A stretch of 64,000 bases of DNA, from the NCBI GenBank assembly GCA_963833985.1, contig CAWIAD010000002.1, positions 576,001-640,000 of the forward strand. The letters run 5' to 3'. Positions 28,660-37,023 of this stretch are shown here, piece by piece. Under the pieces are notes generated by a model, which had not been told where the DNA came from, did not search any database, and saw only the letters and a program-made list of their open reading frames with translations. Numbering within the stretch: the stretch's first letter is position 1; every line of letters begins with the position of its first letter. Made by a program: the position numbers and the translations under genes. The DNA is from an uncultured Planctomycetaceae bacterium. GTDB lineage: Bacteria > Planctomycetota > Planctomycetia > Isosphaerales > Isosphaeraceae.

Positions 28660-29686
28660 ATGGCGGTGATCACGGACACGGCCCTGTCACTGGACAGCCA
28701 GTCCGAGGCTGAGGGCCTGGCGTTTGCGCGAGATCCTGAGGATCGAGGCTGAAGCACTGTTCAGGGTGCGCGAACGGCTGGGGCCGGCGATCGCCCAGGC
28801 GGCGGAGCTGGTCTACCGCTGCACAGGGAGCGTGATCGTCACCGGCATGGGCAAGGCGGGCCTGGTCGGCCAGAAGCTCGCGGCGACCCTCGCCTCGACG
28901 GGCACCCGCGCCTTCCCACTGCATCCGGGCGAGGCGGTTCACGGCGATTTGGGCCGGATCCGGACGGACGACGTCGTGATCGCTCTCTCACAGAGCGGCG
29001 AGACGGAAGAGGTCGTGCGGTTGGTGCCGTCCTTGAGGCGCCTGGGCGCCGTGCTCGTTGCGATCACTGAGCGCACCGGCAGTGCCCTGGGCCGGGCAGC
29101 CGATCTCTGCATCGCCATAGGCCCCATCGAGGAAGCCTGCCCGCTGGGCCTGGCACCGTCGGCAAGCACCACGGCACTGATGGCCGTGGGCGATGCCCTG
29201 GCGCTGCTGGTCAGCCGCATACGCCATTTCTCCCCGGAAGACTTCGCCCTGTACCACCCCGGCGGCAGCCTGGGTCGGAAGCTGGCCCGGGTCGAGGACG
29301 TGATGCGCACCGGCCGCCAGCTTCGCCTGGCCCATGCCGGCGAGACCGTCCGCGACATCTTCGTCCGGCTGGCTGGCCCGAGGAGACGCTCAGGCGCCGT
29401 CCTGATCGTGGACGACCAGTTTCAACTCCTGGGCATCTTCACCGACAGCGACCTGGCGCGGCTGTTCGAGAAGCGACGCGAGGGCGACCTCGACCGGTCG
29501 ATCGGGGAGCTCATGACTGTGCATCCGAAACGGATCGTGGCCGGCGCGTTCCTGAGCGAAGCGGTCGAGGTCTTGAGGTCGCACAGGATCAGCGAGCTGC
29601 CGGTCGTGGACCGCGGGAACCACCTGGTCGGTCTGATCGACGTCACCGACCTGATCGGTCTGGTCCCCTTCGACGTGGAGGACTGA
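28660..29686 (+). CDS. kdsD: D-arabinose-5-phosphate isomerase, KpsF/GutQ family (SIS + 2 CBS); frameshift at ~28728
   Basis: VTGMGKAG, STGT..LHPGEAVHGDLG, SQSGETEE, EEACPLGLAPSAST, FALYHPGGSLG, GIFTDSDL. Confidence 0.9.
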
Positions 29687-29692
29687 ACCTCT

Positions 29693-30241
29693 ATGGGGCA
29701 TGCGTCGTTGCCAGATCTGGACGCCCGGTGCGCCGCCATCGAGCTTCTCGCCGTCGATGTGGACGGCGTTTTGACCGACGGGCTGATCGTGGTCGATGAC
29801 AGGGGCGTCGAGTCCAAGCATTTTCACGTGCGTGACGGTCTGGGTTATGCGCTCTGGCACCGCGCGGGGAAGCACTCGGCCATCCTCTCGGGACGCAAGG
29901 CCGAGGTCGTCGTGCGCCGGGCCGCCGAACTCAAGATCGCCCATGTGGCTCAGGGCCTTGAAGACAAGGGCGAGGCCTTCCGTGCCCTGCTGGATCAGCT
30001 TGGCCTCGAGGCTCGCCAGGTTTGCTTCGTGGGCGACGACCTGGTCGACTTGCCGGTGCTTCGCGCGGTAGGCCTATCGGCTTGCCCCGCCGATGCAGTA
30101 GCCGAGGTGCGTGCCGCGGTCCAAGTGGTCGCGACGGCCGCGGGGGGCCGGGGTGTGGTCCGCGAGGTGATCGAGGTGATTCTCAAGGGGCAGGGGCACT
30201 GGCACGGCCTTTGCGAACGATATGGCGTGCCTCCTCTCTGA
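29693..30241 (+). CDS. kdsC: KDO 8-phosphate phosphatase (HAD family)
   Basis: DVDGVLTDG, KHFHVRDGLG, VGDDLVDL, GGRGVVREV; directly follows kdsD. Confidence 0.92.
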   Translation: MGHASLPDLDARCAAIELLAVDVDGVLTDGLIVVDDRGVESKHFHVRDGLGYALWHRAGKHSAILSGRKAEVVVRRAAELKIAHVAQGLEDKGEAFRALLDQLGLEARQVCFVGDDLVDLPVLRAVGLSACPADAVAEVRAAVQVVATAAGGRGVVREVIEVILKGQGHWHGLCERYGVPPL

Positions 30242-30340: not shown

Positions 30341-33300
30341 ATGAGACTTTTGCTCAGAAAACTCCTCAAGCTGGTGATGATCCTCGGCATCCTGGTGGGG
30401 TGTTACCTGGGTTACGTGCGCGCCTTCGACACGGTCATGGCGCGGCTGGTCGCTACCCGCAGGGTCGACGAAGTCCCTTTCATCGTCAGAGACTCACGGT
30501 CGAAACGCGAGGCCATTGCTCATGCACGCGAGTCGTTCGGCCGCGACCACTGGACCGCTGACGATAACCTCCAGTTACGTTATTACAACGCCGAACGCGG
30601 GTTCTGGATGTACTCGCAGCACGACGATCCCGTGATCGAGGAAGATGGCGTCCGCTACGACCGAAAACGCATCCGCTTGCGCCCCGCAGCCATCATCTGG
30701 CGTGCCAAGGACGGCAGCAGCACGAAGACCGTCACGGCCGAGGAAGCGATCATCGACTTCAATCAGCCCCTCTCCTTCAACGCCAGGCCGGATGGCGAGC
30801 CAATCATCGTCAAGCACGCGCGGCTGGAACGCAACGTGCAGATCCGCGACGACCGCGGAACGCCGGCAGACCGTAGCGACGACATGAACATCGGCCCGCT
30901 GACCTGGGTCGAGTACAACGACGACAAGCTGGAGATCACCAGCGATTCCGACGTTCTCATCGTTGATCCCGACACCCGGATCACCGGCAACGGGATGCTC
31001 ATCAAACTTCGCCCCAAGTCCGACGCCAAAGCTTCCTCCGCACGCTCGTCGGGTTTCGAAGGCGCCCAGAGTGCACAGCTCAATCGCAACCCGGTCGTCG
31101 TCTTCACCGACGTCGGCAAGACCGGCATTCTTCCCGACACGGCACAGACACGGAACAACGCCGCCGGCAAGGTCGAGCTGAACCCTCAGGTGGATCCCTC
31201 GCGACAACCCAGGCTGGAAGCCTCGCCAGGCAAGAAGACCGCCGTGCCGGTTCCCATGGAGATCCGTGCCGAGGGACCGATGCAGATTTCCTTTCCCAAG
31301 CCGCAACTGCCGGTCAAGGAAGGTCCCCCCGCGCCTGCCGGCCCCACGCTCGTGCACTTCGAACGCAACGTGGTGGTGCGCCGCGGCAAGCCGAGCGAAC
31401 AGCCCGATCAGCTCGGCAGCGACAACCTCGACCTGACCCTGGTCCCGTCCGAAAAGACCCCGGAGCCAAAGCGCCCTCTAAAAGCCAAGCAGGAGAACGA
31501 GCAGCACGGAGCGCTGGGCGACCTGGTCTTGCAGCGCGTGCACGCCACTGGCCATGCCGTCTGGCTGAAGTCGCCTGCCAACGGTGTGCGGACCTTCAGT
31601 AATGAGCTGTTGCACAAGATCGGCGGGCCGGGCGGACCCAATACCACCTACTGGAGCGCTGATGACACCCGGAAAGTCGTCATCGAGAAATACGACTTCA
31701 CCGAGCAACGCCCCCAGGGACCCCAGGGCCCTGTCGTGCGCAAACCGGAATCAGTCACTCACATCTGGACGGTCGACGTCACCATGGTTGACAGCGGCAC
31801 GGGCATGGAGACCGCCAATCTCTTTGCGCGGCCCAGGACTGCTGGAGACACGCCCCGTTCCCGACAGGACCGACAGCTCGCTCAAGGACGTTCCACCCGA
31901 TCGCACGGCCGTCTGGCAAGACCTGATGATGCTCAAGAACCTGCTCGGCCCGGACAAGAAGATCGCCCAGCGCGAGATCGTTCTGAAAGGCCGTCCCAAG
32001 ATCGTCGACAGGCTCCAGGAACAGTCACTCGACGCGGCAGAGACCATCGTCGCCTGGCTCAAGCCCAAACCGCCCGCGGACTCAGCGGGCAAGCTCTCGA
32101 AATCCGCGTCCACACCCGCCCAGGACGGCCAGGGCAATCTCGGCGTGCAGGGGGGGAGCTACCAGATCCAGCGCTTGCTCGCCATTCGCGACGTGCACCT
32201 GCTCGCACCCTCCAAGAACCTGAGTGCCCGCGATCGTCTTGAGGCTGACTTCAAGGAACAGCCCCGACCGCGGCTTGTCGCCTCCAGCACCGCCCCGGCT
32301 TCTGTTCAGCCAGCCAGCGACAACCCACGCGCACCGGCCGCGGAAGACGGAGCACAACCGGGTACGACCGAGGATGCAGCGCAGCAAACTCCGAAGCCGT
32401 CGGAACCCGCCATGCTGGCCCGGGCGAACCGCGTGGAGGCCAGCATCGTCATCGACGCCGACAGTCCATCGGGCGGAGCCAGGAACTCGAGCACCTCCAG
32501 AACGAATCATCGAGCGGGCTCTGCATCTCCGGGTGAGCCTGGCTCGAATTACGAGGTCCGCGACCTGCGTCTCTTCGGCGCGGTCAGCTTGCATCAGGAT
32601 CCATCGCCCGGCAAGACCAAGGGCCAGGACGCCATTGGAGAAACGCTGATCCTGCACAACGAAGGACCGGGCAAAGCGGTCTTCAACCTCTATCACCGCG
32701 ACCCGCGTGCCGCCAAGAGTCTTCCCACGGCGACATCCGCAAGCTCGATCACGCCCGCCCGTGTCAGTAACGAGGACATGACCATCGAGGGCGAGGTGAT
32801 CGGCATGAACCAGATCACCGATCAGGCCTGGGCCTACGGACCGGGCAAGCTGATCCAGTTCACCGATCGCGGACTTCTCTCTGACAAGGCGGAGAATGAA
32901 GACGCCAGGACATCCGGAGAGCTCGATCAGGACGGCGGCCAGGGCCAGCGCCTGAGAGCGAAGTCGTCATCCGGAATCAAGGAATCGCAGACCGTCAAGT
33001 CGAAGCCCAGGACCCGCGCCGGCAAGCCGCTGGCCGAGAAGGTCCCCCTCGAGATCACCTGGGGAGAGAAGATGCTCTTCTACGGCCGGTCGGTTGATCC
33101 CGACGGCCGGCCGGCCGCCAGGGCCGAGTTCTACAAGAACGCCCGCGCCGAGATGGAAGACGGCCTGCTCTACTGCACCAAGCTCATGACGACCTACACG
33201 GACAGGCCCGTCCCGCTTGCCGAGCTGGGCAAGATGAGCCCGGCGCGGCCCGGCGCCACGGCGAAGTCCGGGACGGGATCGTGCGCAGGGCGAGAAGTCC

Positions 33301-34275
33301 AGGGAGCCCGCCGAGCCCAAGCCGGACCTGGCACTGATTGACCTGGTTGGCAATGCTCTGGCGATCAGCCGCAAGGTGGATCCCGACCGGCCGGTCCTGC
33401 TCAGCTTGCAGAAGGTCACCAGTCCACACCTGATCTACGACCGGCGGACCGGTAACTTCCAGAGCCCCGTCCCGGGCATGGTTTACCTCTACGATCGAGG
33501 AAACGACCCCGCCAGCCCCGACGGCCCCCAGTCCGGCGCGGGTTCCGGAAGTGGAAATACTGCCGGCAATCGCCAGCGGATCCGGCCCGTGTCCGGTAAG
33601 CCCGGCGACAAGCAAGGCGGTAAGAAGCCAATCCCGCCCCTGGTGCTGACCCAGATCAAGTTCAGCCGCGAGATGAAAGGCCGGCTTGGAACGGGAAAGA
33701 CCACCGACAAGTACGAGACGCGGTGGGCAGATTTCTTCGGCGACATCGAGGCTGCCCGCACGAAGGTGGCCAGCGAGCGGGAATCGATCAGAAGCTTCGA
33801 CCACCTGCCTCCTGACAGCTATTTCCTCACCTCGCAGACGATGCGCGTGGTGAGCGAGCCTCCGGCGCCGGGCGCAGCAGCCAATGCGCAGGCACGCAAT
33901 TTCCTGAAGGCGTGGGAGAACGCCTACGCCTCCACCTCGGACACGATCATCCAGGCCGACGAGATCACGTATGACTCGCTCAACGACCTGATCTATGCCA
34001 ACGCCCTGGACGGCCGTATGGTCAACGTCATGCAGCAGGCTGCGCCCGGGCAGCCCGGCTCACCCATGCGCGCCGAGGCTGTACGCGTTAACCCCAAGAC
34101 AGGCGCTGCCGTCGTGATCGGTCCTAACGACCTCCAGATGCTCGACAAGCGAACGGGAACGCGCCCGGGCGTCGTGGCCCCGCCCGATCCGAACGCCAAA
34201 CCGCCGAAGCGGCCCAAGAGCCACTATCGCCCGCCGCCCAGCAACGTCGAGCGGCGCGGCTTCACGGGACGCTGA
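30341..34275 (+). CDS. ~1310-aa membrane-anchored protein with LptC/LptA (OstA)-like beta-jellyroll segments; frameshifts at ~31828 and ~33240-33295
   Basis: N-terminal TM, repeated beta-rich units separated by Pro/Ser/Ala linkers, position after kdsD-kdsC. ORFs 30341, 31584 and 33376 join through two frame changes. Confidence 0.65.
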
Positions 34276-34403: not shown

Positions 34404-35540
34404 TCAGTACCCATCGTCGGATATTGCCGCGCTGGCACCCGGGGCGGACAAGCCGGGCTGGACTGAGCCATACCGCTTGTGCCAACCCTCGGCAGCGCGG
34501 GCCGTCGTCAGTTCCTCCCGGCTGAAACCGTAGCGCGCGAACCAGGGCGTGCCGCGTGCCCGCACGAGGGAATCGACCTCGCTGAGACGCTGGCGAGCGG
34601 TTATCTCCGCGAATCGCGTTCGACTGGCGGCCGTTCGCTCCAGAAAGTACTCCTTCCAGAACGCGCGCCCTCCCAGGATTCCGGACGCCCCCACCGCGAG
34701 CGCCATCTCCACCTGTCTGAGGTAATCGGAATAATCCACGCCTGAAGAGAGCAGCACCCAGGGGCGTTCGCTGGCGGCGTCAAGTGCGTGCAGGTTATTC
34801 TCGAACTGCTCCTCTGACTGGCGGCCGAGCGTGCCTGGAAACTCCGACTTGTAGATGTCGCAGAACCGGCTCAGTTGCCTTGCCGCCTCGATCACCGACT
34901 GCGGCTTGCGGTCCAGATAGCTATCATCGGTCTTCTTCTCGCCGCCAAACGGGAACGATACGGTTTCCAGAAGCAGCAAGATATCGTGCTTCTTGCATTC
35001 GTGGTAAACATGTTCGACGAGCTGGAACTGGTTCTCGGCCGAGTTCGGCTCGGTCGGCTCGAACTGGGCCAGCAGTTTGACGGCGTCTGCGCCCATGCGC
35101 TTGATCTTGGCGACGCTCCAGCCGGGCTCCACGGCCGCCATGGGCGCACCCTGCTGGTTCTTGGGGCTGTTCGACATCTCGTACCGCACCAGCAGCCCGG
35201 TATGGGGTGGGATGGCCTCTGACGCGATTGCCGAGAACGCACCGTAGTAAGCGTCGATCAGCACGGCCGATGCCGCCGGGGCCAGCGCGCGCATGATGTC
35301 GAGCTTGGCATCGACGATTTCATCGTAGGTGGGCTCGCGACTCTCGCCCGCGGAGCGTAAAGCGCGTGTTGCCATCTCGATGACCGAGCTGTTCTGATCG
35401 AGTGCCAGCATCGTCAGCGTCCCGTCGGGATTGCTGATACGCTGCAATCCACGAAGCTTGCCCGGGGTCAAGTCCTTGCCCAGCAGGGCCGTTGCGCCGA
35501 GACGGCTTGCACTTTGGATCGGAGTCATGGGAAGGCTCAT
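34404..35540 (-). CDS. Tagatose-1,6-bisphosphate aldolase-like class I aldolase (LacD/YihT family)
   Basis: MLALDQ, GADAVKLL, DIYKSEFP, PWVLLSSGV, GASGILGGRAFW. Confidence 0.85.
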   Translation of the reverse strand: MSLPMTPIQSASRLGATALLGKDLTPGKLRGLQRISNPDGTLTMLALDQNSSVIEMATRALRSAGESREPTYDEIVDAKLDIMRALAPAASAVLIDAYYGAFSAIASEAIPPHTGLLVRYEMSNSPKNQQGAPMAAVEPGWSVAKIKRMGADAVKLLAQFEPTEPNSAENQFQLVEHVYHECKKHDILLLLETVSFPFGGEKKTDDSYLDRKPQSVIEAARQLSRFCDIYKSEFPGTLGRQSEEQFENNLHALDAASERPWVLLSSGVDYSDYLRQVEMALAVGASGILGGRAFWKEYFLERTAASRTRFAEITARQRLSEVDSLVRARGTPWFARYGFSREELTTARAAEGWHKRYGSVQPGLSAPGASAAISDDGY

Positions 35541-35958
35541 TTCCGTCGGCCAGGAGAACTTCGTCGAACAACAAAGCGCATTCTAACCGATACAGCCGCG
35601 CCGCCGCAGGGGTGCCGGGGAGATCACATGTCAGGGAGGATTGGCAGACAGAAGGTCGACGACCGGCGCGCCGGGAGGATTGCGAATCGCGGGTTCGGAC
35701 CTTATGATGGGGGTCGGCTCGATCGGTACCGTCTGTCCAAAGCCTGGGCTCGGCGGGTCGAGTCTGGGCGCTCAAGCCTCACGGCGCGAGCGTTCCCTCG
35801 CGACTGTGTCCGGGTGCGCTCGATCAAGGGGCCGGCACCTGGACCAAGATGGCGATAGACCATCTTGATCGCATCCATTCAGAACGCGGACCCGCTGATG
35901 GCGTCCGCCCCCAGCGAGGGACGGCCACGGCGAACCGCACTTCGGAGCGTCTCCAATC

Positions 35959-37023
35959 ATGGCGACCCCCTTTAGCGACCTGCTCGGTGCCGAGGCTGAC
36001 AGCCTGCTCAATCACGTTTGTAAGACCATCCCCAAGCAGTCGCTGCATCTGCCAGGCCCTGACTTTGTTGACCAGGTGTTCGTCCCCAGTGACCGCAACC
36101 CCCGCGTCCTGAACAACCTCCAGCGTATGTTCGGCACCGGCCGCCTGGCCGGAACCGGCTACCTATCCATCCTGCCCGTCGATCAGGGTATCGAACACTC
36201 AGGCGGTGCCAGCTTCGCCAAGAACCCTGCTTACTTCGATCCCGAGAACATCGTCAAGCTCGCCCTGGAGGGGGGATGCAACGCGGTCGCCAGCACCTTC
36301 GGCGTGCTTGGATTCGCTGCCCGCAAGTACGCACACAAGATCCCGTTCCTGGTGAAGATCAACCACAACGAGCTTCTGACCTTTCCCAACCAGTTCAATC
36401 AAGTCCTCTTCGGGACCGTCAAGGAAGCATATGACATGGGTGCCTCCGCGGTCGGGGCCACCATCTACTTCGGCTCGGATCAGAGCACCCGGCAGCTCGT
36501 CGAGATCGCCGAGGCCTTCGCACTGGCTCACGAACTGGGCATGGCCACGGTGCTCTGGTGCTACCTGCGGAACAGCGCCTTCAAGAAGGACAAGGATTAT
36601 CACGTCGCGGCCGACCTCACCGGCCAGGCCAATCACCTGGGCGTCACGATCCAGGCCGACATCATCAAGCAGAAACTGCCCGAAAACAACGGCGGCTTCA
36701 AGGCGCTGAACATGGGCGGTTCGAGCTATGGCAAGCTCGACGAGCGGATGTACACGGAGCTCTGCACGGACCACCCGATTGACCTGTGCCGTTACCAGGT
36801 CGCCAACTGCTACATGGGCCGGGCCGGCCTGATCAATTCGGGCGGTGCCAGCGGCAAGAACGACATGGCCGAGGCGGTGAAGACCTCCGTCATCAACAAG
36901 CGTGCCGGCGGCATGGGCCTGATCTCGGGCCGGAAGGCATTCCAGCGCCCGATGGCCGAGGGCATCAAGCTGCTGAACGCCATCCAGGACGTCTACCTCG
37001 ACGCATCGATCACGGTGGCGTGA
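35959..37023 (+). CDS. fbaB: Class I fructose-bisphosphate aldolase (DhnA/FbaB type)
   Basis: [62 protein letters not shown]. Confidence 0.95.

Follow-up and report, generated by a model that had tools for sequence, protein, structure and literature searches.

In the established model of lipopolysaccharide (LPS) transport in Escherichia coli (PMC10094684), LPS crosses the periplasm over a bridge of Lpt proteins, of which LptC and LptA are small and separate. LptC (YrbK; PF06835; PDB 6mit_C and 3my2; E. coli/Enterobacter) has about 190 residues, with an N-terminal helix followed by a jellyroll, and its gene lies directly after kdsD-kdsC. LptA and LptH (YhbN; PF03968, TIGR03002; PDB 2r19, 4uu4) are secreted proteins that oligomerise head to tail; how many LptA copies make up the E. 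coli bridge is given as unknown (PMC10094684). LptD has a jellyroll at its N-terminus (PDB 5iv9, 7omm, 8h1s). In planctomycetes the Lpt system has been called “largely reduced” (PMC8871954), only LptD was considered usable as a marker (PMC3422733), and LptA (COG1934) is scored 0 in Planctomycetia and Phycisphaerae in the data of a published figure (Fig. S4 of PMC10632474). Here we describe a gene at positions 30341 to 34275 of a 64,000-nucleotide stretch of DNA (the window; contig CAWIAD010000002.1 of assembly GCA_963833985.1, positions 576,001 to 640,000) from an uncultured Planctomycetaceae bacterium of the Isosphaeraceae. As judged from a structural model, its product is very probably the entire periplasmic part of the LPS transport bridge in one chain.

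Like LptC, the chain is predicted to begin with a helix and a jellyroll, its gene directly follows kdsD-kdsC, and an orthologue is essential. Unlike LptC, it runs on into four more units, has an extra helix and four strands before the LptC-like core, scores under the Pfam cut-off in the lineage of the window, and has its lptB elsewhere. With LptA and LptH it shares the jellyroll (Z 13-14, root-mean-square deviation (rmsd) 1.6-2.1 over ~120 residues) and the head-to-tail order of units; these, however, are covalently linked and predicted to be membrane-anchored, unit 2 is extended, there are long Pro/Ala/Ser loops, and neither TIGR03002 nor PF03968 has a match in the genome. The LptD jellyroll resembles both ends of the model (Z 10-12), but the chain lacks an outer-membrane barrel, and LptD has a gene of its own at another place in the genome. 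TamB and YhdP, which are AsmA-like, and the long Veillonella MlaD (PMC10665443) are also described as single polypeptides of fixed length that bridge the periplasm for lipids; they have other folds and phospholipid cargo, whereas the planctomycete chain is made up of Lpt jellyrolls and would be expected to require LptB2FG. Since LptC and LptA are both defined as small separate proteins, the chain belongs to neither: it is not a stand-alone LptC of ~190 residues, nor a separate soluble LptA with a cleaved signal, its units being internal to the anchored chain. We found no literature on fused LptC-LptA in planctomycetes in titles and abstracts, most subscription journals lying outside the search. 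A 2015 review by Putker, Bos and Tommassen (FEMS Microbiol Rev) reportedly mentions LptC-LptA fusions in some bacteria, which could lower the novelty of the fusion as such.

Architecture and predicted fold

The gene spans 3,935 bases on the same strand as kdsD-kdsC directly upstream. A first-pass annotation, made from the letters alone, had proposed a protein of ~1310 residues at this place, with an N-terminal transmembrane segment, an LptC-like segment and several LptA-like units. All the motifs it quoted were recovered, spread over three successive frames between 30341 and 34275: VEYNDDKLEITSDSDVLIVDPDTRITGNGM, HFERNVVVRRG and LQRVHATG in the frame opening at 30341 (window translation); IVLKGRPKI, IQRLLAIRDV, ARANRV, LRLFGAVSL, PLEITW and AEFYKNAR in the second; and IIQADEITYD in the third, which runs to the stop codon at 34275. 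Together the pieces align end to end with a single 1,341-codon frame at locus L031 (72, 63 and 73% identity). The length and position proposed hold. The gene and its predicted modules are:

30341..34275, + strand: single-chain transmembrane helix-LptC-(LptA)4 gene, ~1,311 codons, in three frames in the assembly
30341..30439, + strand: N-terminal basic end and hydrophobic helix (predicted membrane anchor) with a family-invariant Tyr; helix 2-33 of the L040 model
30575..31090, + strand: LptC-like beta-jellyroll unit; module profile match, Pfam LptC E 0.0057
31253..31860, + strand: LptA-like unit 1; module profile, with break 1 in its last strand
31902..32861, + strand: LptA-like unit 2, extended (~1.4 units), with a Pro/Ala-rich loop inside; model and profiles
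33036..33498, + strand: LptA-like unit 3; module profile over two frames, with break 2 inside
33634..34137, + strand: LptA-like unit 4, which matches solved LptA/LptH best and would be expected to dock on LptD; LptH Z 13.8
34138..34275, + strand: Pro/Lys-rich low-confidence tail with a terminal (E/D)(R/K)xxFxG motif; predicted local distance difference test (pLDDT) <50 at 1156-1171

Here L040 is an intact orthologue of 1,186 residues from the same family, which was modelled with AlphaFold on a 62-sequence alignment (mean pLDDT 82.7, predicted template modelling score 0.67), low confidence being confined to loops and the tail. In the model a helix (2-33) and a short helix (51-64) are followed by an all-beta region from 75 to 1140, divided into an LptC-like module (75-242), LptA-like modules 1 (266-462), 2 (471-774, extended), 3 (815-955) and 4 (980-1140), and the Pro/Lys tail. 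A search against 48,161 solved chains gave LptH (Z 13.8), LptA (13.0), LptC (12.2) and LptD (11.8) as its top four matches. The LptH match covers residues 980-1143, the last unit (rmsd 1.6, 121 aligned), where LptA reaches Z 13.0-13.6; the LptD jellyroll also aligns to 117-390 and 61-358 (Z 10.4), and the LptF/G jellyrolls to 73-182 (Z 6.6-7.7). The model therefore places a beta-jellyroll directly after the N-terminal helix, as in LptC, and an LptA-type jellyroll in the last unit, so that both the serial architecture and the fold that had been proposed are seen in it.

The other units are tied in by profile-profile comparison, in which units 3 and 4 match at 96% (E 1.8e-9), the LptC-like part and unit 3 at 74%, and other pairs at 82-92%, some pairs being weak. 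The only PDB sequence match to the family is LptA (E 0.23). Hydropathy along the strands alternates (r = -0.37 for neighbours, +0.18 two apart); since neighbouring positions anticorrelate, this fits sheets with one greasy face. The total of strand residues in L040 is 5.4 times that of unit 4. The proposal of a much longer, concatenated bridge therefore stands as to its serial units, at ~5.4 units rather than the seven that dividing 1310 by 190 would give.

Length differences within the family lie in loops. Isosphaeraceae forms (1,186-1,447 residues) have the same modules as the ~1,000-residue forms of other families plus low-confidence loops; the 125 residues by which the window protein exceeds L040 are loops, and so are those by which L040 exceeds the 1,000-residue forms. 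The terminal (E/D)(R/K)xxFxG motif occurs in 130/178 homologues of at least 1,140 residues against 6/48 shorter ones, mostly in long Isosphaeraceae-type proteins.

Family distribution and gene neighbourhood

The family profile finds 4,280 representatives at 50% identity (E up to 0.001). In a strict first look, which sets a lower bound only, the family was found in 28/28 genomes of the same class and in 26/272 of other classes, and a search with a single member was positive in 151/151 genomes of one related family. A scan of the named genome collection with a distant member as query returned only that member. PF03968 is found in 7/17 and 19/24 members, and the first piece of the window protein sits among ESM Atlas clusters with PF03968/PF06835 on 11-24% of their members (score 0.96). 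Most homologues are labelled “hypothetical protein”, some LptA, LptA/OstA family or OstA-like, so that the database labels expected by the first-pass annotation are borne by part of them; the named close homologues are Isosphaeraceae.

The position after the Kdo genes is conserved, as had been anticipated, with kdsC and/or kdsD upstream in 16/18 and 19/20 fetched loci, two of the three exceptions being contig ends. In the window the two genes are:

28724..29686, + strand: kdsD (arabinose-5-phosphate isomerase, SIS+CBS); Pfam SIS 2.6e-24, CBS 1.2e-15; start possibly at 28670
29693..30241, + strand: kdsC (Kdo-8-phosphate phosphatase, HAD family); Pfam Hydrolase 2.1e-7, Hydrolase_3 3e-6; named from the HAD fold and the conserved place after kdsD

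In other classes the syntenic proteins are recognised directly by Pfam: L089 has LptC (3e-6) then four LptA domains (1.7e-36), L091 has LptC (4.4e-17) then three (1.5e-24), and PF06835 is over its cut-off in L089, L091 and L092. The family profile itself matches L089 at 1.7e-36 and L091 at 5.2e-22. Across these loci (L085-L104), the number of units after kdsC is one (L090, ~425 residues or less), three (L091) or about five (L089, L098).

Other observations at these loci were as follows. In L092 (5798-10465) a 1,555-codon frame after kdsC carries the LptC match and a TatA/B/E match at 1266-1306; the frame is GC-rich and may simply run on through adjacent genes. Two divergent copies of the gene (G018:C281 and G018:C86) occur in a single genome bin with 6% contamination, and may be paralogues or come from a mixed bin. 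Downstream in the window (34404-37023) lie a convergent LacD-type aldolase and a class I fructose-bisphosphate-aldolase-like gene, which recur in several loci of the same family. Scans for promoters and terminators in the window were at chance level only (1 against 0.8 expected; 2 against 4.5).

Essentiality of the Planctopirus limnophila orthologue

The family has an orthologue in P. limnophila, Plim_3739 (ADG69551.1, UniProt D5SWF8, eggNOG 2C710, 983 residues). It shares a 90% cluster with a family member that shows the unit pattern, and a close homologue of that member, L167, has a 4-base overlap with the kdsD stop; in P. limnophila, too, kdsD (Plim_3740) is the neighbour of Plim_3739 (PMC10632474). 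Plim_3739 thus belongs to the same family as the window gene and has the same position after kdsD, but lacks most of the long loops, and the L167 locus has no kdsC before it.

In the essential-gene figure (S3) of PMC10632474, Plim_3739 appears in group 2C710 as “function unknown”, a group assigned to 0.9 of Planctomycetia and to no other class. Its insertion index in the supplement of that study is 0.0044, against 0.0039 for lptD, 0.0027/0.0025 for lptF/G and 0.0089 for lptB, and 0.12-0.15 for the non-essential neighbours Plim_3738, 3741 and 3742. Because the downstream gene is dispensable, the low index of Plim_3739 is not due to polarity. The essentiality that the first-pass annotation had left to be examined is thus found for the orthologue, with an index like that of lptD. 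The lpxABCDKL genes and the Kdo-transfer gene are also listed as essential in P. limnophila (PMC10632474). The index of kdsD itself is 0.011 (PMC10632474 supplement), which could be partly polar, since kdsD sits upstream of the essential giant gene.

The rest of the Lpt pathway in the genome

Besides kdsD/kdsC, the genome carries lptF, lptG, lptB, lptD, lptE, lpxC and waaA; lptB (C2:4231398-4232112) and lptD (G000:C2:2648688-2652719, minus strand) are split in this assembly. Searches with PF04453 and PF19838 gave no LptD match in the genome, though lptD is present; it was located through relatives, and the model of an LptD of the same family (P0263) matches solved LptD at Z 19.9. Likewise, PF04390 found no LptE, and a profile built from six class members did. 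Planctomycete LptD frames have 916-1,374 residues. The P0263 model shows an extra beta domain (49-143), which matches the LptA-unit profile weakly (E 0.037), and a disordered Pro-rich linker (162-251) before the usual jellyroll and barrel.

The giant gene occurs once in this genome. When the genome was scanned with five module profiles and one general unit profile, the window gene alone came up and no separate lptA or lptC, in a search whose sensitivity is limited, because the general profile missed the jellyroll of the genome's own LptD. PF03968, PF06835 and TIGR03002 gave nothing usable over the genome; since they missed the window gene too, they cannot show absence. Among 121 genomes of the class, 26/27 PF03968 matches lay in frames of at least 1,003 residues and one in a 421-residue frame, and no LptA-sized frame carried PF03968. 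PF06835 gave one match below threshold and none over the cut-off in these genomes, with controls such as E. coli detected. Within these bounds, stand-alone copies of the kind that would have spoken against the proposal were not found.

Proposed mechanism and bridge length

By analogy with the E. coli system, the N-terminal helix would occupy the site of the LptC helix in the inner membrane (LptB2FGC), and LPS would pass from the LptF jellyroll into the LptC-like unit. According to the model, four covalently linked LptA-like units, head to tail, would lengthen the hydrophobic groove; unit 4 would then pass LPS to the periplasmic jellyroll of LptD, and LptD with LptE would insert it, the stream being driven by ATP hydrolysis in LptB. 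Bridge length would be fixed by the gene, at ~5.4 units. At an estimated ~4 nm a unit, the chain would measure ~22 nm and the whole bridge, with LptF and LptD, ~30 nm. Published values are ~16 nm for a bridge with one LptA and 21 nm for the periplasm of E. coli (PMC5575297); the planctomycete bridge would be longer than this minimum and too short for large, variable invaginations. The first-pass annotation had linked the long chain to an enlarged planctomycete periplasm. That link finds no support: the “enlarged periplasm” is described as variable inner-membrane invaginations (PMC5394234), much larger than a ~22 nm rod. Its expected place of action is where the two membranes come near each other, a suggestion also made for E. 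coli cells whose periplasm is widened (PMC8824477).

The chain might in addition be a ruler, encoded in the gene, and a tether that sets the distance between inner and outer membranes at apposed contact zones, in cells that can do without many peptidoglycan genes and whose inner membrane is folded far off elsewhere. On such a view, which we consider possible though rather doubtful, envelope width would vary with the number of units (one to about five over the phylum), and the extra LptD domain, held on its flexible linker, would catch the tip of the rod.

Weighing the evidence and alternative explanations

Several results weigh against the reading as a single-chain LPS bridge. The fold evidence comes from the model of L040, not of the window protein itself, whose three pieces share 38, 27 and 29% identity with it. 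In the window the LptC match of the first piece has 16.7 bits against a Pfam cut-off of 21 (E 0.0057), and the second and third pieces have no Pfam matches. Direct BLAST of the first piece against L089 is not significant, so that their link rests on profiles and synteny. Next after the Lpt chains in the structure search come MORN-repeat proteins (Z 9-11.5), a generic long-sheet match whose alignments run over 72-579 and 735-1150 of L040 at ~3 A. A whole-model Foldseek search returns LptD mixed with unrelated large beta proteins, at TM-scores below 0.21 where size effects dominate. The continuous groove that had been foreseen is borne out in part: these MORN alignments suggest one groove face continuing over most unit borders, but continuity through the extended unit 2 is unsupported, because no alignment of good rmsd spans ~600-735. 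The expected lptB is missing from the cluster, in the window and in 20/20 tested loci. Finally, the architecture varies in other classes, one locus (L094) having a two-gene form of 976 residues plus a second gene of 411 with two more units.

The alternative that survives best concerns the cargo: an Lpt-type bridge whose main or additional load is surface lipoproteins or other glycolipids, which can be compatible with the single-chain bridge as such. Cargo does not follow from a common fold, planctomycete LptD has its extra N-terminal beta domain, and Lpt systems move lipoproteins in other phyla (10.64898/2026.10.02.756314); such cargo is reported for the Lpt systems of Borrelia and Bacteroides. 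Yet the gene sits after Kdo genes across the phylum, even overlapping kdsD by four bases in L167, the genes for lipid A and Kdo transfer are present here and essential in P. limnophila, and there is a single copy in this genome. We regard another cargo as improbable, and LPS as the preferred one.

It is less probable still that the N-terminal helix is cleaved or lipidated, so that the product would be a long poly-LptA, soluble or anchored by a lipid, which lacks a true LptC helix and docks directly on LptF, much like the bridge of six proteins in E. coli lptF suppressors. The window N-terminus does combine a basic end with a short hydrophobic core and a lipobox-like Leu-Val-Gly-Cys; its LptC-like unit is under the Pfam cut-off; and only 71/105 full-length homologues pass an N-terminal hydropathy of 1.6. 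A later hydrophobic stretch occurs in only 2/105, and the hydropathy together with the model points to a single N-terminal transmembrane helix. However, a Tyr in this helix (Y22) is invariant in the 62 sequences, and an invariant residue is unusual in a discarded signal peptide. The syntenic proteins of other classes have clear LptC matches right after the helix. The lipobox-like motif lies at 30390-30406, with Leu-Ala-Gly-Cys in two close relatives; its Cys is present in 5 of the 15 alignment A1 rows that cover the N-terminus, which rules out a lipoprotein N-terminus as a family-wide feature.

A third alternative is that the frame breaks of the window gene are genuine, the locus being a pseudogene, three separate genes or a case of programmed frameshifting. 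The two sites are:

31826..31830, + strand: break 1, probable assembly error; two bases short relative to 5/5 close relatives (~31827)
33245..33300, + strand: break 2, probable assembly error; frame shifted by a net one base within a variable linker, exact place not fixable

The assembly itself reads as three frames. Among same-family genomes searched, all 24 match the gene: 13/24 have an open frame of at least 1,150 residues, 2/24 are truncated at contig ends, and 9/24 likewise show a split first part, at break sites that differ among genomes. Most fetched relatives have one frame (990-1,447 residues); 15 of 18 fetched loci have a near-complete single frame, two are split (L045 near the start, also counted among the 9/24, and L047 in the middle) and one is at a contig end, in a set that overstates intactness because loci were picked mostly for long frames. 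Both breaks interrupt structural units: break 1 hits the last strand of LptA-like unit 1, at a nearly invariant Gly-Pro-Gly, and break 2 a loop inside unit 3, whose profile positions 1-69 and 64-135 lie in successive frames.

The quality of the assembly was gauged with 340 kb of a genome of the same genus, which yielded 155 coding-like frames; 130 of these had matches and 82 passed identity and coverage filters. Nineteen of the 82 change frame in this assembly (two of them being overlapping frames at one place), with 22 changes in 113.6 kb, or 0.19 a kb; the chance of at least two breaks in 3.9 kb is then ~0.18. The lptB and lptD genes of this genome are also split and are intact in relatives (lptD open in 5/5), and Plim_3739 tolerates almost no insertions. 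Programmed frameshifting is ruled out by break positions that vary among genomes. The two breaks are most likely assembly errors, judging from these comparisons, and a genuine split is very improbable; because of the high indel load, other “split gene” findings from this genome need caution.

Least probable of all is some other long beta-groove or beta-meander protein, of the AsmA/TamB/bridge-like lipid transfer type or a MORN-like scaffold: alignments of 190-210 residues are obtained with MORN and junctophilin chains (Z 9.5-11.5), and LPD-3 reaches Foldseek rank 40 (TM-score 0.11), AsmA-like and repeating beta-groove proteins lying outside the best structural rows. Lpt chains, however, hold the top four ranks at lower rmsd, and the sequence evidence, PF03968 in the members and LptA as sole PDB match, is independent of the model.

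Significance

To the single-chain LPS bridge the present analysis adds the test for assembly errors, the range of unit numbers over the phylum, the extra LptD domain and the link to a gene already published as essential. With its number of units fixed, a natural bridge bears on the question of LptA copy number in E. coli; it would allow units to be added or deleted and transport and membrane spacing to be measured, and would be a single rigid specimen for cryo-electron microscopy. Without LptC-LptA or LptA-LptA interfaces, it would be expected to be insensitive to thanatin-type disruption at the joints. The model also suggests a function for Plim_3739, until now an essential, phylum-specific gene of function unknown, in a genetically tractable species. 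The protein is real and widespread, and is probably the missing LptC/LptA of planctomycetes, which would close a gap in the published data, where LptA is scored absent although the lipid A genes are essential in these bacteria, as are lptB, lptF/G and lptD (PMC10632474).

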